Assembly (NCBI GenBank): GCA_963555995.3
Contig: OY821641.1
Span: 992,001-1,056,000 of the forward strand
Source: Vicinamibacteria bacterium
GTDB taxonomy: Bacteria > Acidobacteriota > Vicinamibacteria > Marinacidobacterales > Marinacidobacteraceae
Reading direction: 5' to 3'
DNA: 64,000 nt
Below, one piece after another: positions 1 through 61,514 of this stretch. The first letter of the stretch is position 1; each line of letters starts with the position of its first letter. The notes under the pieces are model-generated. The model worked only from the letters and a program-made list of their open reading frames with translations, did not search any database and was not told where the DNA came from. A program made the position numbers and the translations under genes.

Positions 1-959
1 ACCTTCAGGATGTTCCGCTCGGTGGTGTAGTGCGCGCCCTGCTGGCGGCGCTGCTCCGGGTCCATCACCGACTGGAAGAGCGAGCCGAAGATCGCCGGGG
101 AGATGCTCGACCAGTTGAACCGGCAGGCCGCGAGCAGGTGCTCCCGCATCGCAGAGTTGAAGTCGGGAATCGAGATCCGCCCGGCGAAGAGATCGCCATT
201 CACGTAAGGGAACCGGGCGAGATCCTCGTCGAGCGTGGCGGAACGGGCCTCCTCCGGCGTGTCGAGGACCTCGAAGAGGCGCACCAGGAGAGGGCCGAGG
301 TCCATCCCGTCCGGTCGGGTCCGCGTCTCCACGAAGTCGAGCAGGATGTCGCGCGGCTCGAAGACCCCGGTGTCGTCGGCGAACAGGCAGAACACGATCC
401 GCACCAGGAAGCGTTCGAGGTCGTGGTCCGGATACCCGGCGTCCCGCAGCGAGTCGTGGAGCCGGCCGACCAGCTCGGCGGCCTCGATGTTCGCCGGGTC
501 CTGGTCCCGGAACGTCCGGCTCTCGACCCCGAGGATGAACCCGAACTTCTCCGCGTGGTCCGGCAACTCGTCGAGCCGGAAGGCGGCCACCTCCCGCTGG
601 AGGAGGTCGTGGAGCTCGAAGTGCCGGAAGTCGCTCACCAGGATGTAGCGCGGCCGGTCGCGCTCGGAGAGCGCGTCGAAGTAGCTCCCGGCCTGCTCGT
701 AGGCCGCCCCCAGGTCGCGGCCCGCGCTCTTCTGCTCGACGATCAGGACGCCCGGCCAGAAGAGGTCAATGAACCCCCTCGTGTCGTCCAGCTTCGCCAC
801 CCGCTCCTCGTAGCGGGCCACGGACTCCCGGCGCACTCCGAAGATGCGGAAGAAGTCGTTGTAGAAGCTCTGCGTCTCGCCCTTCTCGTAACCGGCGTCC
901 GCCCACTTCCGGGCGAAGGACGCCGCGCGGGCGCGGATCTCGTTCCAGGAGAGGCGCAT
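1..959 (-). CDS. MmeI-like type IIL restriction-modification enzyme (DNA methyltransferase/endonuclease), N-terminal part; runs off the window
   Basis: Not in the ORF track. Manual translation from ATG at 959: MRLSWNEIRARAASFARKW..YEKGETQSFYNDFF..GFIDLFWPGVLIVEQKS..FPYVNGDLF..NWSSISPAIFGSLFQSVM..GAHYTTERNILK, the typical MmeI-family signature. Confidence 0.9.
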   Translation of the reverse strand, partial: MRLSWNEIRARAASFARKWADAGYEKGETQSFYNDFFRIFGVRRESVARYEERVAKLDDTRGFIDLFWPGVLIVEQKSAGRDLGAAYEQAGSYFDALSERDRPRYILVSDFRHFELHDLLQREVAAFRLDELPDHAEKFGFILGVESRTFRDQDPANIEAAELVGRLHDSLRDAGYPDHDLERFLVRIVFCLFADDTGVFEPRDILLDFVETRTRPDGMDLGPLLVRLFEVLDTPEEARSATLDEDLARFPYVNGDLFAGRISIPDFNSAMREHLLAACRFNWSSISPAIFGSLFQSVMDPEQRRQQGAHYTTERNILK

Positions 960-1221
960 GGCGGCGGCGTATTGTGGCAGAGGACCCGACGGGCCGCTCC
1001 GCGCTGGAGACAATCGGAACGCACGGCGGCAACTAGCGCTCGACGTTCCCCTGAGTTACTCCCACCACGAGCCTCATAGTGACTCCACTCCAGTGACGGA
1101 TCCCATCTACGATGACCGGAAGGACTCCACTCAGGATCTCTGCCGTAGAGAAGGCTCCGACTCCCAGAGGATTGCATCATCTGGGCTCTTGGCCCAGAAA
1201 ACAAAAACAGGTGGACCACAT

Positions 1222-1384
1222 TGTTGGGTAGTTTTCCGTTCCGGACAACGACAATTCGGGGCGGTAGAACCCCTCGAAGGAGGCCGACATGTCCAGACGA
1301 CTCCGGCGGAACCATTCGCCGGCATTCAAGGCGAAGGTAGCGATGGCGGCGGCCCGAGCCTTATGTGGACGCGGAACGAGGTGA
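1222..1384 (+). mobile_element. IS3-family insertion sequence remnant (left end plus first ~22 codons of OrfA)
   Basis: TGTTGGGTAG..GTTCCGGACA end-like sequence, then GAAGGAGG RBS and ATG 1289 giving MSRRLRRNHSPAFKAKVAMAA (IS3 OrfA N-terminus RRxHSxxFKAKVAxxA); the sequence then diverges and stops at 1382-1384. Confidence 0.7.
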
Positions 1385-1513
1385 TGGGAGTATCCACAAG
1401 AAGCCGATCCGCACGGGGCAAGGGCGCGGAAAAGCATGACACGGCATGTGATCCGAGACGGGGTTGGTAGTGACTTACACTGGGGGGCTCTTGGACCCAC
1501 TAAGCTAACTACC

Positions 1514-2998
1514 ATGAAGCCGACAACCGAGGCCATTACAAGACCGGGGACCTTCGTAATCAAGCCGATAGGGGCGATTCCGGGGACCCTAACGATCGAC
1601 GGAAGAAACACCGTCCTGTATCTGTGGTCACATCAGAATTTCGAGGTAGATCCCGAGCTCAATAGCACAATCGCTGGAATCCTCGACGACGGACGACCCG
1701 TGTCGCTGATTCGAACCGTACTCACAAGTCATGAGACGAACTTCACAAAGCACGGGCTTTCCCAGAGGATTCGACTATTCCCAAACTATGTGGTCATCGG
1801 TTCGGATTCCGTTACTGATGCCTCGGCCTCCATATCGTCAGTGTCCTTTGAAGTAACAGATGCTCCAACACTGTTCTCTGACCATGAGGCGTTCGGGATC
1901 GTGCATACGAGTAAGGATCTTCTGACAGAGATAGTCAAGGAGAATAAGGGCGATATTTCGTATGAAATAGGAGATTTGCCACTCGTTGCATACTACACGG
2001 GGAAGAGAGAACTATTTCATGCAGAATGCGCAAACTTTGGAGTATCCGGATGGCACGGCATCGGATGGGTAGCTTCTGTCGCAGGAGGCGTGAGGATCAA
2101 CAGCACTCCTCACATAGGGGTCACATTCAAGGATCCGGTTCGTGTCTCGGAAATGACGAAATCTGTAAACGTAGTGGTCCAATTTCTGGAGGCGATGGTC
2201 GGTAGCGTACAGAATGTGGGCGAGATGCATGTGACTGGTCCAATCGGAGGCGAGGACCATGTCGTCGAGTTGCATGACAATACACGTATCCGACATGAGA
2301 TTACTCGTGATGTGCGAGGCAGAATCCCATTCGATGATCTCATAAAACCCGTTCAGCAGCGGGGGGACTTCGAGAGCGTATTGACGCAATGGATGAGTCG
2401 AGACGCGAGTTGGAGCGATGCCCGTTGGCGAGTCTTGATGGGATGGAGACCACCGATACGCTATGGCCCGGATCGTTTGATCAGGGCAGCCAACGCCTTC
2501 GATCTTGTTCCCACGGCGGGCGTTGATGAGCGGCGAGAGTTGCCAAGCGCGATTGCGATCGTGGTCCAAGAGACGAGAGCTAAGTTCCGCGCATTGGATC
2601 CCTCTTGGGAGAGGACCCAGGTACTTAACGCCTTAGGGAGACTGAAGCATCTGTCGCTGAAGAACAAGGTCGCGCGGAGAGCAGAAATAGTGAATGGTTT
2701 GATTGGTGACAATCTCACAGATCTTGTAACGGTCTCAAACAGGGCAATTGACCTGCGAAATGTATACGTTCACGGCCCGTCTGGGCGCCCGAGTGACGAA
2801 GTACTCGAGCAATTCGTTCCGTTCCTGACAAACACCCTTGAGTTCATATTTGTTGTGTCGGATCTTGTCGAGTGCGGCTGGTCGTTCCGTGACTGGTATT
2901 TCGGGAGAAGACTGCGTGGGCACCCGTTTGGCCTCTACATTCGAGACTATGCGTATTGGCAGAGGCAGCTTGAAGCCGCAGTCAGCACTTCGCGATAA
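1514..2998 (+). CDS. ApeA-like HEPN-domain protein (putative anti-phage RNase)
   Basis: ~494 aa; N-terminal IPGTLTIDG..IAGILDDGRPVSL like the ApeA N-terminal domain; C-terminal RxxxxH HEPN motif (LRNVYVHG); visibly more AT-rich than the flanking genes. Confidence 0.7.
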   Translation: MKPTTEAITRPGTFVIKPIGAIPGTLTIDGRNTVLYLWSHQNFEVDPELNSTIAGILDDGRPVSLIRTVLTSHETNFTKHGLSQRIRLFPNYVVIGSDSVTDASASISSVSFEVTDAPTLFSDHEAFGIVHTSKDLLTEIVKENKGDISYEIGDLPLVAYYTGKRELFHAECANFGVSGWHGIGWVASVAGGVRINSTPHIGVTFKDPVRVSEMTKSVNVVVQFLEAMVGSVQNVGEMHVTGPIGGEDHVVELHDNTRIRHEITRDVRGRIPFDDLIKPVQQRGDFESVLTQWMSRDASWSDARWRVLMGWRPPIRYGPDRLIRAANAFDLVPTAGVDERRELPSAIAIVVQETRAKFRALDPSWERTQVLNALGRLKHLSLKNKVARRAEIVNGLIGDNLTDLVTVSNRAIDLRNVYVHGPSGRPSDEVLEQFVPFLTNTLEFIFVVSDLVECGWSFRDWYFGRRLRGHPFGLYIRDYAYWQRQLEAAVSTSR

Positions 2999-3129
2999 CG
3001 TGAGCCGGACAGACGGCACATTCGGCGCCCCCCGAGTAGGTGGCACTAGATCACGGAAAATGGTGGCAGAAAGTGTGAGCGTGCAGCCGACCAATCTGGC
3101 CAGAGGGCGATGCCGAGCTCGGGTCGTCC

Positions 3130-3609
3130 GGCTCCCGACTTGTGGACCGCCAGAAGATCGAGGTAGAAGCCGAACCCGCCCGGACGTTTGCTCCCATCCA
3201 GCGGATCGGCCGCCGGCAGGGGTGGTACTTCGCGACCTGGCTCTGGGTTCTGCGGGGTTTCCTCGACCTGCTGGCGGGCGGCGTAGGGATGCGGCGGGGC
3301 CGCCGGCCTCCGGTGAAACTCCGGGCAGGAGACCCGCTCGACTTCTGGCACGTGGAGGCATGGGAGAAAGATCATCGCCTCCGGCTCCAGACGGAGATGA
3401 AGGTGCCGGGCCGGGCCGGGCTCCAGTTCGAGGTGGAGCCGACCGCTGGCTGCAGCCGGATCACCCGGACGGCGGTGTTCGACCCCTTGGGGCTGAGTGG
3501 GCTTCTCTATTGGTACGGGCTCTACCCGATCCACCGGCTGATCTTCCGGCGGATGCTCCAGGGGGTGGCGGCGCGAGTGAAATCACTTGATCCACCGCTG
3601 TCGCACTGA
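3130..3609 (+). pseudogene. DUF2867 domain (C-terminal part of a YbjT-like SDR-DUF2867 protein), 5'-truncated
   Basis: GSRLVDRQ..IQRIG..GWYFATWLWVLRGFLDLLAGGVGMRRGRR..GDPLDFWHVE..EMKVPGRA..YWYGLYPIHRLIF; no upstream NAD-binding domain. Confidence 0.6.
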
Positions 3610-3788
3610 CGCGCCGTCCCATGGGCGGGTAATTGGGTTCGTTCGACGGGGGATCAATGCAAGAATGTGCGATTGCTTTCCGCAACCAGTGGGCGGTCGA
3701 CACGAGAAGAAGCGGGACGCGTTGTTGACCGTCGAACTCGGGACAAGGGTCCCGGACGACGCTCGACCAAACAGCGAAAGGAACCGCA

Positions 3789-4049
3789 GTGAGGTATCGA
3801 TTGGACGAGTCCGACAGGACGCTGGATATAGATGACAATGGCACGTGGCATATTGGTCCTGGCAGGACCAAGGTCGTGTTGGAACTGGGATTTGGGCAGC
3901 TAGATTTGCAGCCCGGGGCTGGCCAAGTCGTTGTGAACGGGGGGCATGGCCAGATCATCGTTCATCCGAGCGAGGGTCAAGTAGTTCTGTTTGCTGGTAG
4001 AGGTCAGATAATCCTCGACGGCGAGAAGATCCACGATGGTCAAGAATGA
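3789..4049 (+). CDS. small hypothetical protein with 9-residue GQ-hydrophobic repeats
   Basis: AAGGAA before GTG; repeats GFGQLDLQP/GAGQVVVNG/GHGQIIVHP/SEGQVVLFA/GRGQIILDG; ends 9 bp before the next gene. Confidence 0.5.
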   Translation: MRYRLDESDRTLDIDDNGTWHIGPGRTKVVLELGFGQLDLQPGAGQVVVNGGHGQIIVHPSEGQVVLFAGRGQIILDGEKIHDGQE

Positions 4050-14723: not shown

Positions 14724-14741
14724 TACATGACGCGCCGTCTG

Positions 14742-14786
14742 GGAACGCCGGTCTCCAGACCGGCACGCGCGGCGCTCCGCACCGCG
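14742..14786 (+). repeat. REP-like palindrome plus companion hairpin
   Basis: GGAACGCCGGTCTCCAGACCGGCAC followed by GCGCGGCGCTCCGCACCGCGC. Confidence 0.8.
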
Positions 14787-14863
14787 CCCGACGTAACCTC
14801 CATCCCCAACTGGCGCGCCAGCGGTCCCCACGCTCGACCGCCCCGGGCCATAATCCGCGCGCC

Positions 14864-15655
14864 GTGATCGCCTCCACCTCCCCCTTCTCGCTCGCCGGGA
14901 TGGATGTCGTGGTGATCGGCGGCGGGTCCGGGATCGGCGAAGCGAGCGCCCGGCTGGCCGCCCGCTCCGGCGCCCGGGTGGTGGTCGCCGACCGGGACGA
15001 AGCCGCCGCCGACCGGGTCGTCGCCGCCATCGCCGGGGGAGGTGGAACCGCCGTCGCCCGTTCGGTGGACATCCGCTCCGGGGAATCGGTCGAGGATCTG
15101 TTCCGACGGCTCGAATCGGAGGGATTCCGTCCCCGGGGACTCGTCTCCACTCCGGGCGTGAACGTCCGGAAGCGCCTCGCCGATACGAACGAGGAAGAGT
15201 TCGAGCGGGTCGTCTCCCTGAACCTGAAAGGGACCTTCCACGCCCTCCGCCACGGGGCGGCCAGCCTCGCGCGCTCCGGCGGCGGCGGGATCGTGCTGCT
15301 CTCCTCGATCCGCTCCCAGGTGGTGGAAGCGGGGCAGGGGGTCTACGCGGCCACCAAGGCGGGCATCGTGCAGCTCGCCCGCACCGCGGCGGCGGAATGG
15401 GCCGCTTCGGGGGTCCGGGTGAACGCCCTCGCCCCGGGCGTCGTCGAGACCCCGCTGACCGCCCAGATCGAGAAGCGGCCCGACTGGAAACAGGCGTACA
15501 CCGACAAGACCCTGCTCGGGCGCTGGGCGACCGCGGAAGAGATGGCCGCGCCGACGGTGTTCCTCCTGTCCCCGGCGGCGAGCTACGTCACCGGCTCGGT
15601 GCTCTTTGCCGACGGCGGCTGGACGGCGGTGGACGGCCGGTTCGATCCGCTCTGA
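14864..15655 (+). CDS. SDR family oxidoreductase
   Basis: GGGSGIG, YAATK, VNALAPG, DGGWT; GTG 14864 preceded by CATAAT. Confidence 0.9.
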   Translation: MIASTSPFSLAGMDVVVIGGGSGIGEASARLAARSGARVVVADRDEAAADRVVAAIAGGGGTAVARSVDIRSGESVEDLFRRLESEGFRPRGLVSTPGVNVRKRLADTNEEEFERVVSLNLKGTFHALRHGAASLARSGGGGIVLLSSIRSQVVEAGQGVYAATKAGIVQLARTAAAEWAASGVRVNALAPGVVETPLTAQIEKRPDWKQAYTDKTLLGRWATAEEMAAPTVFLLSPAASYVTGSVLFADGGWTAVDGRFDPL

Positions 15656-15765
15656 GCGGCGGGCAGGTGTCTGTTCCAGAGCCTGGCGGCCCGAGCCTGG
15701 GGCGAACGCGGGATCGGCGGGTCCAGGTCGCCGGCGCCATCCGGGAGGGGGTGGGGTTGCGCCGT

Positions 15766-16025
15766 GCGCGGCGCGGAGCGCCGCGGTGCCGGTCTGGAGA
15801 CCGGCGTTCCAAGGCGTACGGGCCACCTCCGGTGTTGGCTCCGCGCCGAGATCGGAGCGGCGGTTTCCGGGTTGGGTTGGGTCGCGCTCCGCATGGCGCG
15901 ACCGCAACCGCCCTCACGGCAACCGTCGCGCCCAGCGCGGCGGGACCGCGTCTCGTTGAGCACCGGATCGCGTACCGGCTTGGAACGCCGGTCTCCAGAC
16001 CGGCACCGCCGCGCTCCGCGCGGCG
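15766..16025. repeat. pair of oppositely oriented REP-like palindromes
   Basis: GTGCCGGTCTGGAGACCGGCGTTCC at 15786-15810 and GGAACGCCGGTCTCCAGACCGGCAC at 15982-16006, each with a companion hairpin. Confidence 0.85.
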
Positions 16026-20146: not shown

Positions 20147-20198
20147 GGGAGCCCGCCGAGTCAGGTGGCGTAGCGCGTTCGCTCCGCTGCGGGGAGCG

Positions 20199-20308
20199 GT
20201 GCCGGTCTGGAGACCGGCGTTCCAAGCCGTTTGCGCGATGTGTGGGACGAGCGGATGCGCCGCGCGGCCCTGGGGGGAGCGGTGCCGCCCCCTGAAGATC
20301 GGCGCTCC
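20199..20308 (-). repeat. two REP-like palindromes (second one degenerate)
   Basis: GTGCCGGTCTGGAGACCGGCGTTCC at 20199-20223; GTGCCGCCCCCTGAAGATCGGCGCTCC at 20282-20308. Confidence 0.75.
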
Positions 20309-41035: not shown

Positions 41036-41166
41036 GGAGCGCCGGCTTCAGCCGGCACCCGCTGCACGGAGCGCCGCGTGGCCGCGGTACCGCTGCTCCC
41101 CCGCATAGCACCCACGGCTTGGAACGCCGGTCTCCAGACCGGCACGCGCGGCGCTCCGCGCCGAGC
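41036..41166 (+). repeat. two tandem REP-like palindromes
   Basis: GGAGCGCCGGCTTCAGCCGGCAC at 41036-41058; GGAACGCCGGTCTCCAGACCGGCAC at 41121-41145. Confidence 0.85.
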
Positions 41167-41236
41167 ATGTCGCAACTCCATCAACCCCTACAGCATCCAC
41201 AGCTTGGAATCCTGACCCCCCTTGGAGTTCGGACGT

Positions 41237-49918: not shown

Positions 49919-51163
49919 ATGGCCTTTGCTGGCATCCGCTTCCGGGATCTGATCGCGGTCGTCGGTGTCGCTGGGGTGCTGGTGGCCGGTGCGGTGCTGC
50001 TCCACCAGGCGCGTCCGCGGGTGGCCGGCAGGACCCCCGAGCAGATCCGGGCGAGCGGCGAGTGCGCGAACTGTCATCGCAACGAGACTGGGGCGGTGGT
50101 GGCGCAGTTCGAGATGAGCGCCCACGCGGGCGCCGGGGTGACCTGCCTCGACTGCCACCAAGTGCGTCCGGGGCAGGCCGCGGTCGAGCACCACGGGTTC
50201 GAGATCACCACCGCGACCACCGCGCTCGCCTGCCGGGGCTGCCACGCCGACGAGGCGCGCCAGTTCGAACGCAGCCGCCACGCGCTTCCGGCCTACGCGG
50301 CCGTCATGGGCACCGAGGGGTATCCCGCCACGTTCGCCACCGAGCGGATCGCCCGCGCCGAGGAGATCCACCCCGGAGCGGTCCGGCGCCCGCCGAACGC
50401 GCTCGCGCGGCTCGAGGGCTCGCCGACCACGGTGTCCGGCTGTCTCGGGTGCCACGACATCGGGCGGCCGAACGCCGACGGCTCCATCGGGACCTGCACG
50501 GCCTGCCACAGCCGGCACTCCACCGCGATCTCGCTGGCCCGGGCGCCGGCCACCTGCGGGCAGTGCCATATGGGGCCGGACCACGCGCAAAAGGAGATCT
50601 ACAGCGAGTCGAAGCACGGCATCCTGTTCGAGGCGCAGCGGCACCTGATGAACCTGGACGCCGAACCAAAACTGCTCACTGCCTTCGACATGCCGGTGCC
50701 GACCTGCGCCACGTGCCACATGAGCGGCCTGGAGGGCGCGAAGGTGACCCACGACACCACCGAGCGGCTCTCGTGGTGGCTCTTCGCCCCGGTTTCCGAG
50801 AAACGGCCCCACTACGACCAGGCGCAGGCCGAGATGCAGGGCATCTGCCTCAAATGCCATGCCGAGAACCAGGTGACGCAGTTCTATGCCGACGCCGAGG
50901 CGCTGGTGGAGACCACCAACGCCCGCGTCGCCGAGCTGATGGAACGCATGGCCGAGGTGCAGGAAGCGGGGCTCCTGACCGAGGCGCCCTTCGACGAGCC
51001 GCTCGATTTCCTGTTCTTCGACGCCTGGCACTACGCGGGCCGCACGGTGAAGCACGGCGCGTTCATGGACGGCGCCGACTTCGTGCAGTGGCACGGGACC
51101 TACGACCTCATCAACCGGATCACCGAGATCGAGGAACGGATCCAAGCGCTTTCGCCGGAGTGA
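49919..51163 (+). CDS. membrane-anchored octaheme c-type cytochrome, HAO-family-like
   Basis: 8 CxxCH motifs (CANCH, CLDCH, CRGCH, CLGCH, CTACH, CGQCH, CATCH, CLKCH); CHMGPDH..IY.ESKHG and PTCATCHM as in the HAO family. Confidence 0.85.
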   Translation: MAFAGIRFRDLIAVVGVAGVLVAGAVLLHQARPRVAGRTPEQIRASGECANCHRNETGAVVAQFEMSAHAGAGVTCLDCHQVRPGQAAVEHHGFEITTATTALACRGCHADEARQFERSRHALPAYAAVMGTEGYPATFATERIARAEEIHPGAVRRPPNALARLEGSPTTVSGCLGCHDIGRPNADGSIGTCTACHSRHSTAISLARAPATCGQCHMGPDHAQKEIYSESKHGILFEAQRHLMNLDAEPKLLTAFDMPVPTCATCHMSGLEGAKVTHDTTERLSWWLFAPVSEKRPHYDQAQAEMQGICLKCHAENQVTQFYADAEALVETTNARVAELMERMAEVQEAGLLTEAPFDEPLDFLFFDAWHYAGRTVKHGAFMDGADFVQWHGTYDLINRITEIEERIQALSPE

Positions 51164-51206
51164 CCCCGGTCCGCGTGCGGCTACCGAGAACGCCCCCGGC
51201 GATCCC

Positions 51207-52055
51207 GTGAATATCTCCCTTCCGGGCCTGCGCCGCCGCCGGCGCCTCCTGCTCGAGGTCTTTCTCGCCGGGAACCTGCTCTTCCTGGCGGTGGACATTT
51301 TCTTCGCCCACTCGGTGAACTCCTTCCGCGAGCCGGTGGAGTGGCTGCCCCTCTGGTTCTCGCTGGCCGGCGGCCTGGTGCTCTTCGGGCTCCTCGCCTC
51401 CGGGCGCGGACCCGATGTTCCGGCGATGCGATGGGCCGGGGCAGTGATCGGCGGCCTCTCGGTGGGGGTGGGGATCTGGGGAACGATCCTGCACCTGGAG
51501 AGCGCCTTCTTCCGCCGGTTCGCCCTCGACGGCCTGATTTACGCGGCGCCGTTCGTGGCGCCGCTCGCCTACGCCGGAATCGGGTTCCTGCTGCTCGCCA
51601 ACCGCGCCGGTCTTTTCCGTCCCGCCGATGACGATTTCGGCTGGGGCCAATGGGTGACGATGTTCGCGGCCGGCGGGTTCGCGGGCAACTTCGTGCTCTC
51701 GCTGCTCGACCACGAACAAAACGGCTTTTCCTATTGGACCGAGTGGATCCCGGTGGCCGCGGCGGCACTGGCGGTGTCGAGCCTGGCGCTCGTCGGACTG
51801 CGGCACGCGCCGGCGCCGGGACTGGTCCGGCTGGCGGTGCTGACGCTGCTCCTCCAGGTGGGCGTCGGACTCCTCGGCTTCTGGCTCCACTTGGGCGCCG
51901 GCATCAGCGCCATCGGGGGGCGGCCCTTCGAGGCATTCGTCCACGGAGCTCCCCCGTTCGCGCCGCTGCTGTTCGCGGACCTCGCCGTCCTTGCCGGGAT
52001 CGGGCTGCTCGCCCTACCGGCGTCGTCGATTGCGGCGACCGGGGAAGACAGGTAG
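51207..52055 (+). CDS. uncharacterised integral membrane protein with internal duplication and 4 conserved His
   Basis: HSVNSF..EWLP/HEQNGF..EWIP; GTILHL/GFWLHL; APFVAPL/APPFAPL. Confidence 0.75.
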   Translation: MNISLPGLRRRRRLLLEVFLAGNLLFLAVDIFFAHSVNSFREPVEWLPLWFSLAGGLVLFGLLASGRGPDVPAMRWAGAVIGGLSVGVGIWGTILHLESAFFRRFALDGLIYAAPFVAPLAYAGIGFLLLANRAGLFRPADDDFGWGQWVTMFAAGGFAGNFVLSLLDHEQNGFSYWTEWIPVAAAALAVSSLALVGLRHAPAPGLVRLAVLTLLLQVGVGLLGFWLHLGAGISAIGGRPFEAFVHGAPPFAPLLFADLAVLAGIGLLALPASSIAATGEDR

Positions 52056-52096
52056 CACGGCCGTACACGCCCTGAGGGTGGGTGGGGTTGCGACGT

Positions 52097-52142
52097 GCGC
52101 GGCGCGGAGCGCCGCGCGTGCCGGTCTGGAGACCGGCGTTCC
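52097..52142 (-). repeat. REP-like palindrome with companion hairpin
   Basis: GCGCGGCGCGGAGCGCCGCGC followed by GTGCCGGTCTGGAGACCGGCGTTCC (52118-52142). Confidence 0.85.
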
Positions 52143-52250
52143 CAGCCGGTGCGCCATCCGGGTCGTCAACGGCACTCGACTCCCTCCGGCCACCAGGCCG
52201 TCAGATCGAGAAGCCCGGGCCGGGCCCGCGCTTCGGTTACGTCGAGGGGG

Positions 52251-55200
52251 TCACGCCGCCGTTCGCGGCAGCCCGCGCGCCCGCCAGACGAAGTAGATCG
52301 CCGGGAACACCACCAGCACCACGGCCGCGGCGGTGACGACCCCGCCCACCATGGGGGCGGCGATCCGTTTCATGACGTCGGACCCGGCGCCGGTGCTCCA
52401 CATGATGGGCAGCAGGCCGAGCGCGGTGGTGGCGGTGAGCATCGCGACGGGTCGAACGCGCCGGAGCGCGCCGTCGAAGACCGCCTCGCTCAGCTCGGCG
52501 CGGTTCGTGAGACGCCCCGCCTCCTTCGCCGCTTCGCAGGAGCGGTCCAGGTAGAGCAGCATCACCACTCCGGTCTCGGCGCTCAGTCCGGCGAGGGCGA
52601 TGATCCCCACCCCGACCGCGATGCTCAGGTTGTAGTCGAGCGCGTAGAGCAGCCAGAACGTGCCGACCAGCGAGAGCGGCACCGCGGTCAGCACGATGAG
52701 CGTCCGGGACACCGAGCGGGTGCTCATCTGGATGGTGAGCAGGATGAGCAGCAGGGTCAGCGGGACCATGATCTCCATCCGTTCCCGGGCGCGCAGCAGG
52801 AACTCGTACTGGCCGCTCCAGCCCAGGCTGTAGCCGGTCGGGATCTCCACCTCCTCGGCGACCGCGGCCCGGGCGTCTTCGACGTAGCTGCCCACGTCCA
52901 CGTCCTCGATGTCCACGTAGATCCAGGCGTTCGGCCGGGACTGTTCGCTCTTGATCACCGGCGGCCCCTTGACGAAGGACATGTCCGCCAGGAAGGCCAG
53001 CGGAATCTGCTGCCGGGTCGGCGTCTGCACCAGGATGTCCCCGAACTCGGAGGGGTTGTCGCGGAGGTCGCGGCTGTAGCGCAGGTTCACCGGATAGCGC
53101 TCGAGTCCCTCCACGGTGGTGGTGATGTTCATCCCCCCGATCGCCGACTGGATGACCTCCTGCACGTCGCCCACCGTCAGGCCGTAGCGGGCGATGGCGT
53201 CGCGCCGGATGGTGAAGTTCAGGTAGTTCCCACCCATGGCCCGTTCCGAGTACGCCGAACGGGTGCCCGGAACCTCGCGCACCACGGCTTCGACCTGACC
53301 GCCGAGGTCCTCGAGGACCGCGAGATCCGGACCAGCGAGTTTGATCCCCACCGGCGTCTTGATGCCGGTGGACAGCATGTCGATCCGGGTCTTGATGGGC
53401 ATCGTCCAGGCGTTCGTCAGGCCGGGGAAGCGGATGGCGTCGTCCATCTCCGCGATAAGCCGGTCGGGGGTCATGCCGGGGCGCCACTCGCTCTCCGGTT
53501 TCAGGAGGATCGTCGTCTCGATCATGCTGAGCGGGGCCGGGTCGGTGGCGGTGTCGGCGCGGCCGACCTTCCCGAAGACCGTCTCCACCTCGGGGAAGTC
53601 CCGCAGGATCCGGTCGGTCTGCTGCAGCACCTCGCGGGCCTTGGTGATCGAGACCCCGGGCAGGGTGGTCGGCATGTAGAGCAGGTCGCCCTCCCAGAGC
53701 GGCGGCATGAACTCCGACCCGAGGCGCGAGACGGGCACGGCGGTGGCGGCCGCCCCCGCCAGGGTGAGTGCGAGGACCGCCCAGCGCCACCGCAGGACCA
53801 GCCGCAGGACGGGCCGGTAGAGCGCCATCAGCAGCCAGGTGACCGGGTTGCGGCCCGCCGGCCGGATGCGTCCGCGGATCCAGAAGCCGGCGAGCACCGG
53901 AACGAGGGTCACCGAGAGCAGCGCCGCCGCCGCCATCGCGTAGGTCTTGGTGAACGCGAGCGGCCGGAAGAGGCGGCCCTCCTGCGCCTCCAGCGCGAAG
54001 ATGGGCGCGAAGGAGATCGTGATCACCAGGAGCGCGAAGAAGAGGGTGGGCCCGACCTCGGTGGAGGCGCGCGCGATGATGCGCCAGTGGGGCGTCTTGC
54101 CCCCCTCTTCCTGCCGGTCCCGCTCCAGGTGCCGGTGGGCGTTCTCCACGATCACAATCGCCGCGTCCACCATCGCCCCGATGGCGATCGCGATGCCGCC
54201 GAGCGACATGATGTTGGCTCCGACCCCCTGGAAGTACATGACGATGAAGGCCATCAGCACCGCGAGCGGGAGGGTGATCACCGCGACCAGCGCGGAGCGC
54301 AGGTGCAGCAGGAAGACGACGCACACGAGCGCCACGATCGCCATCTCCTCGACCAGCTTCTCCCGCAGGGTGGCGACGGAGTCCTCGATCAGCTCCGTCC
54401 GGTCATAGACCGGCACCACCTCCACTCCGGCGGGCAGGCCGGCCTGGAGCTCCTCGAGCCGCGCCTTGACCCGCCCGACGACCTCGTGGACGTTCGCGCC
54501 GGAGCGGACGACGACGATGCCGCCGACCACCTCGCCCTCACCGTTCAGTTCGGCGAGACCCCGGCGGATCTCCGGCCCGAACTGCACGGTTGCGATGTCC
54601 TCGACGGTGACCGGGGTGCCGGAGGCGTCCACCCCGAGCGCGATGCGGCGCACGTCGTCGAGCCCCCGGATGTACCCCTCCCCGCGCACCATGAACTCGG
54701 TCTCCGCGGTCTCGAAGACCCGCCCCCCCACGTCCGTGTTGCTGCGCCGCACCGCGTCCCGGATGCGGGCCAGCGAGATGTCGTAGGCGCGCAGCCGGTT
54801 CGGGTCCACGGTGATCTGGTACTGCCGGACGAACCCGCCGACGCTCGCCACCTCCGAGACTCCCTGGACGGCGGTGAGCTCGTACTTGAGGAACCAGTCC
54901 TGGACCGACCGCAGTTCGGCGAGGTCGTGGTCGTCGGAGCGGAGCGCGTACATGTAGGCCCAGCCGACGCCGCTCGCGTCGGGACCCAGGGTGGGGCTGA
55001 CTCCCTCCGGAAGCCTGCCGCTGACGTAGTTGAGGTACTCGAGGACCCGGCTCCGGGCCCAGTAGAGGTCGGTGCCGTCCTCGAAGATCACATAGACGAA
55101 CGAGAACCCGAAGAAGGAGTAGCCCCGCACCACGGTGGCCGAGGGGACCGCGAGCATCTGGGTGGTGATCGGGTAGGTCACCTGGTCCTCGACGACCTGC

Positions 55201-55373
55201 GGGGCCTGTCCCGGGTAGTCGGTGAACACGATCACCTGGACGTCGGAGAGATCGGGCAGCGCGTCGAGGGGGATGGCGCGGAGCGCCTGGAACCCGGCGA
55301 CGGCGAGGAACGCCGCCAGCACGAGGACGAACAGGCGGTTCCGGAGGGACCACTCGATGAGGCGGGTCAACAT
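52251..55373 (-). CDS. cusA: CusA-type heavy-metal RND permease
   Basis: DALPDLSDVQV, YWARSRVLEYL, NIMSLGGIAIAIGAMVD, EFMPPL.EGDLLYMP, DVMKRIAAPMVGG. Confidence 0.95.
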   Translation of the reverse strand: MLTRLIEWSLRNRLFVLVLAAFLAVAGFQALRAIPLDALPDLSDVQVIVFTDYPGQAPQVVEDQVTYPITTQMLAVPSATVVRGYSFFGFSFVYVIFEDGTDLYWARSRVLEYLNYVSGRLPEGVSPTLGPDASGVGWAYMYALRSDDHDLAELRSVQDWFLKYELTAVQGVSEVASVGGFVRQYQITVDPNRLRAYDISLARIRDAVRRSNTDVGGRVFETAETEFMVRGEGYIRGLDDVRRIALGVDASGTPVTVEDIATVQFGPEIRRGLAELNGEGEVVGGIVVVRSGANVHEVVGRVKARLEELQAGLPAGVEVVPVYDRTELIEDSVATLREKLVEEMAIVALVCVVFLLHLRSALVAVITLPLAVLMAFIVMYFQGVGANIMSLGGIAIAIGAMVDAAIVIVENAHRHLERDRQEEGGKTPHWRIIARASTEVGPTLFFALLVITISFAPIFALEAQEGRLFRPLAFTKTYAMAAAALLSVTLVPVLAGFWIRGRIRPAGRNPVTWLLMALYRPVLRLVLRWRWAVLALTLAGAAATAVPVSRLGSEFMPPLWEGDLLYMPTTLPGVSITKAREVLQQTDRILRDFPEVETVFGKVGRADTATDPAPLSMIETTILLKPESEWRPGMTPDRLIAEMDDAIRFPGLTNAWTMPIKTRIDMLSTGIKTPVGIKLAGPDLAVLEDLGGQVEAVVREVPGTRSAYSERAMGGNYLNFTIRRDAIARYGLTVGDVQEVIQSAIGGMNITTTVEGLERYPVNLRYSRDLRDNPSEFGDILVQTPTRQQIPLAFLADMSFVKGPPVIKSEQSRPNAWIYVDIEDVDVGSYVEDARAAVAEEVEIPTGYSLGWSGQYEFLLRARERMEIMVPLTLLLILLTIQMSTRSVSRTLIVLTAVPLSLVGTFWLLYALDYNLSIAVGVGIIALAGLSAETGVVMLLYLDRSCEAAKEAGRLTNRAELSEAVFDGALRRVRPVAMLTATTALGLLPIMWSTGAGSDVMKRIAAPMVGGVVTAAAVVLVVFPAIYFVWRARGLPRTAA

Positions 55374-55475
55374 GTGATGGTTCCGGGCTGGTTAGCGGGT
55401 TCCGGCGCCGGCTTGATCCTGCCAGGATGCCGTGCGCCAGTGCTTCGGGTCGGCGGGCGCCGGAGGGGTGGGGGG

Positions 55476-55639
55476 TGGGGAGGGGTGTCCCCTCCCCACG
55501 AGAGAATCGGTGGAGAGAATCGCGCAGCGATTCGCGCCACCGACCCGTGGGGAAAGCACCCTGCATCCGTGGATTCCCCCGGGTCCCGCCGGATGGCGGG
55601 AGGTTCCGGGGACGGGATGCGGGGTGCTTTTTCCACGGG
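55476..55639. repeat. multi-hairpin intergenic element between cusB and cusA
   Basis: Hairpins at 55476-55499 and 55507-55543; long imperfect inverted repeat CCCGTGGGGAAAGCACCCTGCATCC ... GGATGCGGGGTGCTTTTTCCACGGG (55544-55639). Confidence 0.6.
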
Positions 55640-55642
55640 CTG

Positions 55643-57001
55643 CTAGTGGTGTCGGTGGGTCATGGCCGGTTCCGGCGCCTCGGGCTCGGCGGTCTCCGGT
55701 TCGGCGACCGGCGCCTTGATCGCCTGGGTGAGGTTGCTCTCGGAATCGATCAGGAACTGGGCCGAGACCACGACCCGGTCCGCTTCGGAGATTCCGTCCG
55801 CGATCTCCCAGACCCCGTCGCCGCCGGCGCCGAGGGTGACGTCCGCCACCCGGTAGAGGCCCGGTGAGAGTTCAAGGACCACCAGGTCCCGGGCGCCGCT
55901 CCGGATCACCGCCTCCTCGGGCACCGTCAGCGCGTCCCGCGCTACCGGCACGTCGAAGGTGACGTTCGCGTACATGCCGGCCCGCAGCGCCAGATCGGGG
56001 TTCGCGAGTTCGATGGACACTGTCATCGTCCGCGTCTCCTGGTTGAAATGGGGATACAGGAAGCGGACGAACCCGGTGTAGGGCCGTCCCGGCACGTAGG
56101 GCAGCTCCACCTCGGCCCGCTGGCCGATCCGCATGGCCTGCACCTGGTGTTCGAAGATCTCGACGTCCACCCAGATGGTGGTCAGGTCGGCCAGCTTGTA
56201 GAGGTTCATCCCCGGCTCGACGTACATGCCGTCGAGCGCCTCGTCCACCTTCTCCACGACCACGCCGGTGACCGGAGAGACCACCGAGAGCGTGCGTCGG
56301 GGGGTCTCCTCCCGCTCCAGCAGCGCGATCTGTTCGTCGGTGATGTCCCAGTAGCGGAGCCGGGCGCGGGCCGCCTCGACGAGCGAGCGCGCCCGCCCGG
56401 CGACGTCGGGGAACCGCGAGGCGTCGAGCCGCTCCGCGTAGTGCACGGCCTGGAGGTATTCGGTCTGGGCCGCGACCAGTTGCGGGCTGTAGATGTCGAA
56501 GAGCGCCTGGCCCTCCTCGACCGTCTCCCCGAGATAGTTCACCGCGACGTTTTCGATCCAGCCGTCGTACTTCGTGCCCACCCAGGCGATCTGCTTGTCG
56601 TTGTGGGCGAGGGTGCCGACGGTGCGGATCGTCTGGGCGATGTCCCGCCGCTCGACCGGGGTGGTGCGCACCCCGATCCGCTGCACGAAGCCGGGATCGA
56701 GGCGCACCGCGCCTTCCGGCGTGGCGCCCGCTTCGTCCGCGTAGACGGGGACCAGGTCCATTCCCATGGGCGACTTGCCGGGCCGGTCCGAAATGAAGTT
56801 CGGATCCATGGGCGCCCGCCAGTAGAGGACCTCCCGGTCGTCCTCCGCGGCCGGGACGGCCATGTCGTGCCCTTCGTGGCCGTCCGCGGCCTCGCCGAAG
56901 CGGGGCGGCCACTCCCAGCCGCCGAGGGCGAACCCGGCGAGGACGACGAGCGCCATGCCGGCGAGGAAGGCGCCGGCGCCGATGACGAGGGTGCGGTTCA
57001 T
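55643..57001 (-). CDS. cusB: CusB-type periplasmic adaptor
   Basis: YWRAPMDP..PGKSPMGMDLVP, YSPQLV, GMYANV, QFLIDSESNL. Confidence 0.9.
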   Translation of the reverse strand: MNRTLVIGAGAFLAGMALVVLAGFALGGWEWPPRFGEAADGHEGHDMAVPAAEDDREVLYWRAPMDPNFISDRPGKSPMGMDLVPVYADEAGATPEGAVRLDPGFVQRIGVRTTPVERRDIAQTIRTVGTLAHNDKQIAWVGTKYDGWIENVAVNYLGETVEEGQALFDIYSPQLVAAQTEYLQAVHYAERLDASRFPDVAGRARSLVEAARARLRYWDITDEQIALLEREETPRRTLSVVSPVTGVVVEKVDEALDGMYVEPGMNLYKLADLTTIWVDVEIFEHQVQAMRIGQRAEVELPYVPGRPYTGFVRFLYPHFNQETRTMTVSIELANPDLALRAGMYANVTFDVPVARDALTVPEEAVIRSGARDLVVLELSPGLYRVADVTLGAGGDGVWEIADGISEADRVVVSAQFLIDSESNLTQAIKAPVAEPETAEPEAPEPAMTHRHH

Positions 57002-58374
57002 GAGGACCTCCCGGCGGGCAGGGGAACCTGGGCGCCGATGCCCCGTTCGAGATCCGCGAGCGCGATGAGGAAGTCGGACACGTAGCGGGCGCGCATCCGC
57101 AGGACGTCGAGCTGGACGCGTTCGCCGTCGAGCAGGTCGAGGACTCCCACCTGACCCGTTTCGTAGGCGGTCTCGGTGGCGCGGAGCGTTTCCTCGCTCT
57201 GCGGGATGAGCACGGTCTCGAGCAGGGCGAGCTGTTCCTCGATGGTCTCGACCCGGATCAGGGCCAGCTCCACCGCGTTCTCCATGGCGTCCCGGGCCTC
57301 TTCAAGGCGCCTTCGGTTCGCCGTGAGGCGGTGCCCGGCTTCCTCGACGCCGGCGCGGTACTTCTCCTTCCAGACCGGCAGGGAGACCCCCAGGGACACG
57401 CTCAGGGAGTTCTTGCCCTCGTCCGGAGGGAGCGGTCCGAGGACGTCGGCCGGATCGCGGCCGGCGACGTTCATCAGCGCGAGGCTTGCGGTGAAGCGGG
57501 GCCGGAAGTTCATCCCGGCCAGCTCGACCGCGTCTTCGCTCGCCTCGATGAGCGCGGTCGCCGCCCGCAGTTCCTGCCGGTTCCGCGCTCCCAGGTCCAG
57601 CAACTGCGCCCGGTCCAGGCTCACCGCGGGCGGTTCGATGGCGGGGACCTCTGGAACCGCGGTTTCGGGGGAGCGGGCGCAGAGCGTGTTGAGGTTCGCG
57701 GCGAGCGTCCGGCGCTGGCCGGTGAGCTGACGCTGCCGGTCGGCGATCCGGGTGAGTTCCGCCTGCAGCCGGATGACCGCCTGCTGGAGGCCCTCGCCGG
57801 TGGCGTAGCGCGCCCGCGCCAGCGTTTCGTAGTGCCCCACGAGCGAGCGTTCTTCTTCCAGCAGCCGGCGCGCCGCGTCCAGATAGGCGATGTCGTAGAA
57901 GGTCCGCTTGACCCGGGCGATGAGTTCGCGTTCCTCGGCCTGGACGAGGAGGAACTGGGCATCGGCTTCGGAGAGCGCCAACCGGCCGCGGAGATCACGA
58001 GCGCCGAACCAGGGCAGGGACTGGGTCACCGTGATGCCGCCGGTCTGGGACCCGACGCGGGTCTCCATCCTCCGGAGCGCCTGGCTCACGCTCAGGGTCG
58101 GGTCGGGGAGGGCCGTGACCTGCGGGACGCGCTGCCGGGTAGCCTGGTGCTTCGCCCGGGACGCGAGCAACGCGGGATGCCGTTCGATGGCGCTGTCCAC
58201 GCAGCTTCTGAGCTCCGCTTCGGGAGCGTAGAAGTCGGGAGGTGGTTCCGGCGGGATTCCCGCAGCCGCCGCGACGGCCATCAGGACCGCCGCCGGGCAG
58301 GCAAAAAGGGATCGTAGAGACAACACGATAGGGAGAATCCGTCGCCAGGCTGCGGCGGGCCGGGGCCAGACCAC
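56998..58374 (-). CDS. TolC family outer membrane efflux protein (CusC-like); start uncertain
   Basis: ALPDP, QSLPWFG, ARYATG, AYETG; directly upstream of cusB. Confidence 0.85.
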   Translation of the reverse strand: MVWPRPAAAWRRILPIVLSLRSLFACPAAVLMAVAAAAGIPPEPPPDFYAPEAELRSCVDSAIERHPALLASRAKHQATRQRVPQVTALPDPTLSVSQALRRMETRVGSQTGGITVTQSLPWFGARDLRGRLALSEADAQFLLVQAEERELIARVKRTFYDIAYLDAARRLLEEERSLVGHYETLARARYATGEGLQQAVIRLQAELTRIADRQRQLTGQRRTLAANLNTLCARSPETAVPEVPAIEPPAVSLDRAQLLDLGARNRQELRAATALIEASEDAVELAGMNFRPRFTASLALMNVAGRDPADVLGPLPPDEGKNSLSVSLGVSLPVWKEKYRAGVEEAGHRLTANRRRLEEARDAMENAVELALIRVETIEEQLALLETVLIPQSEETLRATETAYETGQVGVLDLLDGERVQLDVLRMRARYVSDFLIALADLERGIGAQVPLPAGRSS

Positions 58375-58424
58375 GCGGCGCTGGCCGCCGGCGGGTCACC
58401 GGGTTGGCGGGCCCGGGAAACCGC

Positions 58425-58447
58425 CCCGTGCCGGGTTCCGGCACGGG
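58425..58447. promoter_or_regulatory. perfect hairpin between the leader ORF and tolC
   Basis: CCCGTGCCGG-GTT-CCGGCACGGG. Confidence 0.5.
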
Positions 58448-58561
58448 CCGCCGGTCGTCAGGGGTGCTGGCCGGGGACGGCGCCTTCGGGGCGCGCGCGA
58501 GGCGCGAGCCCGGTCCGGCGACGTTCGGCTCAGCGGGACCGAACGCGCGGCGGACGGAGAC

Positions 58562-58912
58562 TCAGATCAGCAGGGCGGCGTGCCGGACGAAAAGGGGCGG
58601 CCGCGGCTCCCGGGGAGGAAGGGGCCCGTCGGGCTGGCGGTTCCATCGGAAAATCGGCTGGAGCGACTCCCCGGAGGCGGGCAGGACCGCCGCCGGACCC
58701 GGCTCGGGGGCAAGGAGCTTGGGGACGGTGACCGACGAACAGCAGGCGCTCACGCGTTCCGCGTCCGGGACCGGCTCGGAACCGCCGTGACAGCTCGCCT
58801 CGGCGGGGATGCCGGGCGCCGCCATCAGCGGGCAGACCACCGCGAACGCCAGCACCACGGCCAGCACGGTGGCGGCCAGCGGCTTGCGGCGTGTGGACGT
58901 GAACAGCTTCAT
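58562..58912 (-). CDS. Cys/Pro-rich leader protein upstream of the Cus operon
   Basis: 116 aa; signal/TM stretch, SCHGG, ACC, C-terminal PLPPREPRPPLFVRHAALLI; TATACT upstream. Confidence 0.65.
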   Translation of the reverse strand: MKLFTSTRRKPLAATVLAVVLAFAVVCPLMAAPGIPAEASCHGGSEPVPDAERVSACCSSVTVPKLLAPEPGPAAVLPASGESLQPIFRWNRQPDGPLPPREPRPPLFVRHAALLI

Positions 58913-58966
58913 TGCCGGCGGCCAGTATAGAGACCCCGGCTTCACGGGCGCCAATGGCGGGAATTC

Positions 58967-61397: not shown

Positions 61398-61514
61398 ATG
61401 GCCGAGCAACGTTCCCCCGTCGACGAGGCCCCGCTGGCACGCCCGGCTTGGAACGCCGGTCTCCAGACCGGCATCGCCGCCGCAGGCGGCGAACCCGTCG
61501 AGGGAGGCTCCTAG
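61398..61514 (+). other. 38-codon uORF: duplicated nuoD 5' end carrying a REP-like palindrome
   Basis: MAEQRSPVDEAPLARPAWNAGLQTGIAAAGGEPVEGGS-TAG directly followed by the nuoD ATG; REP at 61450-61473. Confidence 0.6.

Follow-up and report, generated by a model that had tools for sequence, protein, structure and literature searches.

A Tyr-less octaheme cytochrome of the HAO fold paired with an uncharacterised two-repeat, four-histidine membrane protein in a Vicinamibacteria bacterium

Introduction

How is an octaheme cytochrome of the hydroxylamine oxidoreductase (HAO) family supplied with electrons when none of its classical partners is found in the genome? This question is raised by a two-gene locus in a 64,000-nt stretch of a Vicinamibacteria bacterium (phylum Acidobacteriota; GenBank assembly GCA_963555995.3, contig OY821641.1, positions 992,001 to 1,056,000), hereafter the window, to which coordinates refer unless a contig or locus is named. 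Here, the gene of an HAO-fold octaheme lacking the cross-link Tyr of oxidative HAO is followed, also on the + strand, by the gene of an uncharacterised membrane protein made of two homologous four-helix repeats, whose four conserved His all lie on one side. To our knowledge, the electron source of most Tyr-less HAOs is not established. The account that we favour, at slightly better than even confidence, is that quinol is oxidised at single-sided heme b sites in the membrane protein and that its electrons are transferred into the octaheme for the reduction of nitrite, nitric oxide (NO) or hydroxylamine. In metagenomes, genes of this kind routinely carry the name 'hydroxylamine dehydrogenase' or 'nitrite reductase' (PMC8940962, PMC11266412).

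Results

The octaheme cytochrome and the cross-link Tyr position

An earlier analysis of this DNA made from its letters and open reading frames (ORFs), referred to as the sequence-only reading, had assigned the upstream gene to the HAO family from eight CxxCH motifs with HAO-like spacing and context. Both points are borne out: the protein contains exactly eight CxxCH motifs (at residues 49, 76, 105, 175, 193, 213, 263 and 310), which alignment and motif scan place in HAO spacing, and the context motifs CGQCHMGPDH..ESKHG, PTCATCHM and GAFMDGADFVQWHG are present. Genome-wide, eight such motifs occur in just 3 of the 5,325 six-frame stop-to-stop segments of at least 300 amino acids. The sequence matches PF13447 (Pfam, E 7e-18), and its best solved relative by sequence is IhOCC of Ignicoccus hospitalis (4QO5; E 6.5e-34, profile E 4e-49). 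As determined by AlphaFold, Foldseek (E 1.4e-14) and VIA, the monomer model (predicted local distance difference test score (pLDDT) 87.5) has the HAO fold including its three C-terminal helices; 4QO5 is the closest structure (VIA Z 27.3, root-mean-square deviation (rmsd) 2.1 over 344 residues, 31% identity), ahead of KsHAO, N. europaea HAO (NeHAO), Kustc0458 and hydrazine dehydrogenase (HDH), all at Z 21-23.

The eight proximal His, six further His (69, 91, 121, 200, 233 and 278) and the D221-H222 pair are invariant in 119/119 close homologs. In an alignment to 4FAS, D221-H222 pair with Asp267-His268 of NeHAO, listed among the functional residues of HAO (PMC3814345).

The sequence-only reading had further placed a Trp where oxidative HAO has its cross-linking Tyr. 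Because an insertion in HDH misled the register when the octaheme C-terminal profile was aligned directly to HDH, that alignment was dropped, and the Tyr register was based on chained pairwise alignments (window to Kustc0458, Kustc0458 to HDH, HDH to NeHAO). Residues 452-470 of NeHAO, with His459 and Tyr467 eight residues apart, align to HDH without a gap; HDH aligns to Kustc0458 with a one-residue gap, and the window profile to Kustc0458 without any. Along this chain, His459 corresponds to M383 and Tyr467 to Q390, and it is W391 that falls on Tyr467 if eight residues are counted from M383. The absence of Tyr thus stands under either count (Q390 in 118/119 and W391 in 119/119 close homologs, never Tyr), while the choice of Trp depends on how the register is set.

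At the position of His459, which we take to be a heme ligand in NeHAO, Met is found in 118 of the 119 close homologs, in 20/20 of the sister proteins described below and also in IhOCC. Since M383 is common to these proteins, one heme of the octaheme is likely His/Met-ligated, as in IhOCC. The seven bis-His transfer hemes of the HAO family are accordingly not matched, as M383 replaces His459, and the six other invariant His are candidate distal ligands. The conserved Tyr close by (Y395) is matched by one in IhOCC, which has been classed as a P460-free octaheme nitrite reductase (PMC9250108).

In a quick maximum-likelihood tree of 56 rows, built without IhOCC and epsilon-Hao, a branch with support 59 set off the 26 octahemes linked to the membrane partner (support 97 for 25 of them), another with support 89 set off the 20 sister proteins, and four anammox HDH/HAO rows stood apart. 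The partner-linked octahemes thus cluster with an epsilon-Hao-like sister clade, away from oxidative HAO/HDH. Compared to oxidative HAO and HDH (1FGJ, 4N4J, 6HIF), the window protein shares the fold, the heme spacing and the Asp267/His268 pair but lacks Tyr467, occupies a separate tree branch and is not accompanied by c554/cM552 genes. With HAOr of Kuenenia stuttgartiensis (Kustc0458/0457, 6H5L), it shares the fold (Z 21.9), the lack of Tyr and the ungapped C-terminal motif; HAOr, however, has His at the His459 position and a soluble diheme partner, and identity is 22%. IhOCC shares the fold, the eight CxxCH motifs, the Met and the missing Tyr, whereas the window octaheme is ~100 residues shorter, has D221-H222 where IhOCC reads D-V, and possesses a conserved helix at the N-terminus as well as an 8-helix partner of its own. 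The octaheme is thus a Tyr-less HAO and not an oxidative one, and its mode of action most likely resembles that of IhOCC or epsilon-Hao. Tyr-less HAOr converts nitrite to NO and accepts NO and NH2OH as further substrates for reduction, reduction of nitrite and NH2OH is reported for four epsilon-HAOs, and the characterised Tyr-less HAOs barely oxidise hydroxylamine, which HAOr cannot do at all (PMC8042395).

The N-terminal hydrophobic helix is likely an uncleaved membrane anchor rather than a signal peptide. It is conserved (F8 and A25 in 65/67, R32 and P33 in 67/67), as would be expected if the anchor touches a partner.

The two-repeat membrane protein

As the sequence-only reading had it, the next gene begins 43 bp after the octaheme ORF, with a GTG at 51207, and encodes a protein of about eight transmembrane helices built from two homologous halves. 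The AlphaFold model comprises eight long helices (pLDDT 92.3, predicted TM score 0.91), the halves are homologous by hhalign (99.4%, E 4e-21), and each carries HxxNxF-x4-EWxP, GxxLHL and APxxAPL. The four His that had been called conserved (H35, H96, H169 and H228) are kept in 141, 142, 142 and 142 of 142 aligned homologs, at identities down to 28%, along with N23, D30, E45, D168, E179, the GxxGxxxH glycines and the PxxAP prolines. The protein contains no Cys.

The proposal that these His are paired across the membrane, as in a classical di-heme cytochrome b, was not upheld. In the model, the His sites are the ends of helices 1, 3, 5 and 7, with GxxGxxxH on helices 3 and 7, all on the side whose loops are poor in Lys/Arg (0.4-1.2 per loop, compared to 2.0-3.1 on the opposite side). 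From this charge distribution, the four His are all likely to be periplasmic, on the side expected for the heme domain. Di-heme cytochrome b anchors (NarI, FdnI, HyaC, PetB, b561) have His pairs stacked across the membrane, in contrast to the one-sided arrangement here, and likeness to them was found neither in the Pfam, NCBIfam and PDB searches nor among the listed folds. More likely, each four-helix repeat holds one two-His site; both His are also kept in single-repeat homologs, which shows the repeat to be self-contained.

We counted 814 homologs among 7,996 scored candidates, including one in Poriferisphaera, and 549 among 50%-identity representatives, all named 'hypothetical'. Searches of Pfam, NCBIfam and PDB sequences matched the protein to no family, and Pfam on the 142 homologs yielded scattered weak matches only (Zip 12/142, DUF2339 7/142). 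Foldseek returned nothing at E 0.001 or better, the ESM Atlas unnamed clusters only (with no named match for repeat 1), and a plasmid search no match. Cytochrome b, CtaA and DsbB are not among the VIA top 50, which still leaves room for kinship. A weak NCBIfam match of a single-repeat homolog (E 6e-4) had suggested DsbB; this candidate was rejected at an hhalign probability below 1% against all repeats, with a DsbB set that held some wrong-frame rows. The full texts searched, with supplements outside the search, describe neither the membrane family nor its pairing with an octaheme; a Ferrigenium preprint (10.64898/2026.01.22.701106) reports a different, cytochrome bd-like partner. Judging from sequence and His arrangement, the membrane partner appears to fall outside the cytochrome b families described so far.

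Pairing of the two genes across phyla

A GTDB scan recovered at least 546 relatives, of which the best 80 were kept as loci (numbered with the prefix L). An octaheme gene lies directly upstream on the same strand in 79/80, the exception, L029, having just 115 bases of upstream sequence. Ten of these loci are close relatives (≥77% identity); according to record titles, the other 70 come from Acidobacteriota, Planctomycetota, Gemmatimonadota, Verrucomicrobiota, Myxococcota, Bacteroidota/Rhodothermota, Zixiibacteriota, Poribacteria and others. Among 301 genomes of the host's own phylum, 11 contain a membrane-protein match (E ≤1.4e-68) and the same 11 an octaheme match (E ≤1.8e-136), the two genes being adjacent; these include the window's genome and genome G024 (unpublished data). 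Similarly, 6/6 strong matches in 251 Planctomycetota genomes adjoin an HAO-like gene. The membrane gene is present in 12 of 15 genomes of the same genus.

Upstream of the pair lie genes for a malic enzyme and an MdoC-like acyltransferase, and downstream, on the opposite strand, an RND efflux pump. A peptidase-like gene recurs in the close relatives and in a few other loci; otherwise the loci share no third gene, and we therefore regard the unit as two genes. On one Verrucomicrobiota contig, two paralogous octaheme-membrane pairs are found (L034 and L036), one adjoining qNor and a Crp/Fnr regulator.

A sponge metatranscriptome yielded contigs from a related strain (~90-95% identical) that together span most of 49955-52024, one of them bridging both genes, and the upstream gene is mostly uncovered; such contigs are no proof of transcription or of a single transcript. 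RNA runs X2 and X3 gave small scattered pieces only. At the pair locus, no promoter-like site was found and terminator-like sites were at chance level. A correlation between the distance matrices of octaheme and membrane protein (rho 0.50, n=67) is not taken as co-evolution, because shared ancestry explains it.

Sister octahemes and the host genome

Twenty of the weaker octaheme matches (E 1e-40 to 1e-102) were analyzed as a sister set in 10-kb loci, with Pfam run on chosen neighbours. The membrane gene is present in 0/20 of these loci. Instead, Pfam identified cytochrome b (L125, L135), Rieske (L135) and NapC-family proteins (L134, L137) and NrfD with a ferredoxin (L133); L136 and L138-L143 contain similar-looking cytochrome b or NapC genes, judged by sequence only. 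Matches to cytochrome b, Rieske, NapC and NrfD were found in 0/80 of the partner loci. The membrane gene thus fills the slot that known quinol-oxidising modules occupy in part of the sister clade. Sister octahemes also occur in Rieske - cytochrome b - octaheme - NapA operons (L139, L142, L143), each a candidate complete quinol-to-nitrate/nitrite module.

The NapC-type sister arrangement corresponds to the reverse hydroxylamine:ubiquinone redox module (reverse-HURM) proposed for Nautilia profundicola, in which HaoA, a Tyr-less octaheme (epsilon-Hao), is a proposed quinol-fed nitrite reductase with the NapC/NrfH-like cM552 (PMC3701875). The likeness lies in the Tyr-less octaheme and in the NapC-type, Rieske/cytochrome b or NrfCD partners of the sister clade. 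The window differs from the Nautilia module in that its quinol-side partner is an unrelated His-bearing 8-helix protein rather than a c-type cytochrome. The classical partners had been described as absent, and the search of the host genome (93% complete) agrees: the NapC/NirT family was not found, nor was any ORF with 3 or 4 CxxCH motifs. The host has a single molybdopterin enzyme, 26% identical to NapA, and one heme-copper oxidase (aa3-type) beside a Rieske/cytochrome b cluster. TIGR01703 was rejected as an HAO marker, being the hybrid-cluster protein and not HAO (0/5 genomes).

NO-stress genes near the pair

Among the 70 more distant partner loci, ten contain NO-stress genes (qNor in 5, NnrS, YtfE/RIC and Hcp in 2 each), or eleven if a small gene of the DUF2249 type is counted; Crp/Fnr regulators occur in 5 of the 70. 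No NO-stress genes were found in 80 control loci of the GMC-linked branch described below (0.5 Mb, compared to 0.95 Mb). The link is suggestive only, because the loci themselves served for choosing the markers and three matches come from close kin.

The qNor neighbours could also point to a respiratory, NO-forming nitrite reductase standing in for NirK/NirS and supplying qNor with NO, a role proposed for hao-like octahemes of Phycisphaerae (PMC11266412) and in keeping with NO formation from nitrite by HAOr (PMC8042395). Besides the five partner loci, qNor is present in 4/20 sister loci, in which a NapA-like gene is equally frequent (4/20). Yet 75 of the 80 partner loci contain no qNor, and neither qNor nor nitrate reductase was matched in the host genome; we consider this alternative very unlikely.

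A wider superfamily of the repeat

From weaker membrane-protein matches in the 301 own-phylum genomes, three further branches were traced, homologous by profile comparison (86-99% probability) with both His and PxxAP aligned. The first, GMC-linked and two-repeat (branch (a)), aligns over its full length including all four His (hhalign 99.1%, E 1.6e-18) and numbers 4,254 homologs, annotated as hypothetical. It precedes a gluconate-2-dehydrogenase subunit 3 gene in 61/63 loci with enough sequence and a GMC oxidoreductase gene in 43/43, and a same-strand multi-CxxCH ORF is present in 0/26 long loci. One representative, WP_114200511.1 of a Paraburkholderia caledonica plasmid, is homologous to the window protein over both repeats with the four His aligned and is likewise hypothetical, but its type has a flavoprotein dehydrogenase rather than a cytochrome as partner, and its repeats can be separate genes.

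The operon of this branch (L112-L114, L212-L291, L292-L294) encodes a thiamine pyrophosphate enzyme, an enolase-like protein, the two-repeat homolog, subunit 3 (without an obvious twin-arginine translocation signal), the GMC oxidoreductase and an SDR protein, with no cytochrome c subunit. In classical gluconate dehydrogenase, a cytochrome c subunit takes the role in question. The operon is also found on Paraburkholderia and Komagataeibacter plasmids, and on a Deinococcus plasmid two half-size genes stand in the same place.

The single-repeat branch (b) is present in 41/301 genomes and keeps both His in 30/30. In Acidobacteriota (L170-L198, L115-L124), the four-helix two-His protein and an apparently secreted double helix-hairpin-helix (ComEA-like) protein are encoded in either order; the host's own single-repeat homolog, just outside the window (C1:1074340-1074873, L145:5341-5876), follows a membrane-pyrophosphatase-like gene and has no helix-hairpin-helix neighbour. 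Branch (c), the two-repeat family f14 (L092, L105-L111), is divergent, retains the repeat 2 His and is often near an RND efflux gene.

As the GMC-linked homologs probably move electrons from dehydrogenase to quinone, the octaheme pair might also work in the oxidative direction or without a nitrogen substrate (on a sulfur compound, or as a relay or capacitor for periplasmic electrons), delivering electrons to quinone. A His/Met heme would be high-potential, and the host combines an aa3-type oxidase and a Rieske/cytochrome b cluster with no detected N-oxide respiration, both of which would suit this direction. For the octahemes of I. hospitalis, hydrogenase-dependent reduction is reported and their in vivo role is described as unresolved (PMC4429474). 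Against it stand the missing cross-link Tyr in the chained alignments, the weak hydroxylamine oxidation of characterised Tyr-less HAOs (PMC8042395), the distal Asp/His pair retained in 119/119 homologs and NO-stress neighbours that recur across several phyla, and we judge the oxidative alternative to be quite unlikely.

Other features of the window and host genome

The features of the two genes are listed in Table 1. A CusA/CusB/TolC-type heavy-metal efflux cluster (52251-58954, - strand) converges on the membrane gene. Directly after the latter lies a copy of an intergenic repeat of ~90-130 bases (52060-52190; further copies at 41100-41187, 61417-61473, 14727-16025 and 20164-20239), which yields 632 BLAST pieces genome-wide at 79-100% identity and very high sequencing-run depth, and which is likely an element resembling repetitive extragenic palindromes or miniature inverted-repeat transposable elements (REP/MITE-like). 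Positions 1-4000 have a G+C content of 58-62%, compared to ~70% elsewhere, and may be foreign DNA. Elsewhere in the host genome, a 952-codon frame with 8 CxxCH motifs (C1:3719709-3722567), located between split cytochrome b genes and the aa3-type oxidase cluster, is a candidate multiheme bc-oxidase supercomplex, and three more large multiheme ORFs (8, 5 and 7 CxxCH; C1:1316378-1324115 and C1:42960-44945) are unrelated to the HAO profile.

Table 1. Coordinates of the octaheme and membrane-protein genes and of their features within the window
Feature	Position	Strand	Basis
Octaheme cytochrome c, HAO fold, Tyr-less, IhOCC/epsilon-Hao-like clade; 414 aa	49919..51163	+	PF13447 and 4QO5 matches
N-terminal hydrophobic helix, residues 8-31	49940..50011	+	Model helix; conserved F8, A25, R32, P33
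Stretch with all eight CxxCH, residues 49-314	50063..50860	+	Motif scan; proximal His 119/119
D221-H222, Asp267/His268 equivalents on the distal side of the HAO catalytic heme	50579..50584	+	Alignment to 4FAS
M383, at the His459 position of N. europaea HAO	51065..51067	+	Chained alignments; Met 118/119
Q390-W391, at the cross-link Tyr467 position; no Tyr	51086..51091	+	Chained alignments
Uncharacterised 8-helix membrane protein, 282 aa, two homologous four-helix repeats	51207..52055	+	No family; AlphaFold model; hhalign
Repeat 1, residues 10-134: D30, H35 (51309-51311), E45, G89/G92, H96 (51492-51494), P115-x2-A118-P119	51234..51608	+	
Repeat 2, residues 144-270: D168, H169 (51711-51713), E179, G221/G224, H228 (51888-51890), P249-x2-A252-P253	51636..52016	+	

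Discussion

In the account that we favour, the 8-helix protein would hold one heme b between the two His of each repeat at the periplasmic face and oxidise quinol on that side; electrons would pass, within a putative physical complex, into the membrane-anchored octaheme, which would reduce nitrite, NO or hydroxylamine, mainly for detoxification. With all four His periplasmic, the hemes, if any, would both lie at this face and the module would not be electrogenic. Both predicted sites being on the same side, its operation would resemble that of NrfH-NrfA or cM552-epsilonHao, and the periplasm would receive the protons.

Several observations weigh against this account. No solved cytochrome b matching the membrane protein was found by PDB sequence search, Foldseek or VIA; its best folds are the Bacillus cereus proteins 3D19/3DBY (VIA Z 16.5 and 16.0, 6-9% identity; at best rmsd 3.5 over 237 residues, 6% identity), followed by single four-helix bundles at Z ≤12. 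3D19/3DBY, which we take to be soluble proteins of DUF2935, likewise consist of two tandem four-helix bundles, a likeness of fold only. NO-stress genes are near 0/10 of the closest loci, 60 of the 70 distant loci have no such neighbours, and the choice of markers and the kinship noted above bear on the remainder. In the host genome, NrfD, NirK, qNor, Hcp and nitrate reductase were not found, so that nitrate respiration is a poorer fit than the detoxification of N-oxides of external origin. As for the wider superfamily, loop sidedness gave no clear orientation in the GMC branch; in branch (b), a helix-hairpin-helix gene is the neighbour in 28/30 loci and the repeat gene directly follows a quinohemoprotein (pyrroloquinoline quinone) dehydrogenase gene in just 3/30; and branch (c) has no redox neighbour. 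Overall, branch (a) supports a redox-anchor role, and branches (b) and (c) make clear that an oxidoreductase does not always accompany the module.

A conserved carboxylate 5-6 residues before the first His (D30 in 141/142; E55 and E218 invariant; E44 in 28/30) raises a further alternative, as it would fit a metal site of two His and one carboxylate equally well. On this alternative, the membrane protein would bind a non-heme metal, or heme in transit, and act as an assembly, metal-delivery or sensing partner, electrons reaching the octaheme by another route. Conservation of the acidic residue in three branches, the two-bundle metalloprotein nature of the top fold match, and single-repeat and f14 homologs away from redox enzymes all speak for it. 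However, another quinol dehydrogenase is present in 0/80 partner loci, NapC and NrfD were not found in the host genome, the sister octahemes mature without the membrane gene, and the 6% identity to 3D19 may reflect just a common helical arrangement; we regard a metal-binding partner as unlikely.

Quinol oxidation by the membrane protein on behalf of the octaheme would have consequences for both families. Present in at least 546 GTDB stretches, the fixed two-gene unit lends itself to expression and testing as a minimal system. Should the partner be a cytochrome b, it would represent a new quinone-interface family without a Pfam model, and it would explain the many GMC dehydrogenase operons without a cytochrome subunit (4,254 homologs). 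It would also provide abundant heterotrophs (Acidobacteriota, Planctomycetota, Gemmatimonadota, Verrucomicrobiota and Myxococcota), in which canonical reductases are often lacking, with a nitrite/NO/hydroxylamine sink. Tentatively, and at somewhat less than even confidence, we suggest a broader model in which the repeat represents a class of membrane cytochrome b not described before, with a modular, single-sided quinone interface that, single or doubled, may connect unrelated enzymes (Tyr-less HAO octahemes, cytochrome-less GMC dehydrogenases and some quinoproteins) with the quinone pool of thousands of bacteria from soil and sea; the octaheme pair would then be a common means of removing nitrite, NO or hydroxylamine that has been overlooked.

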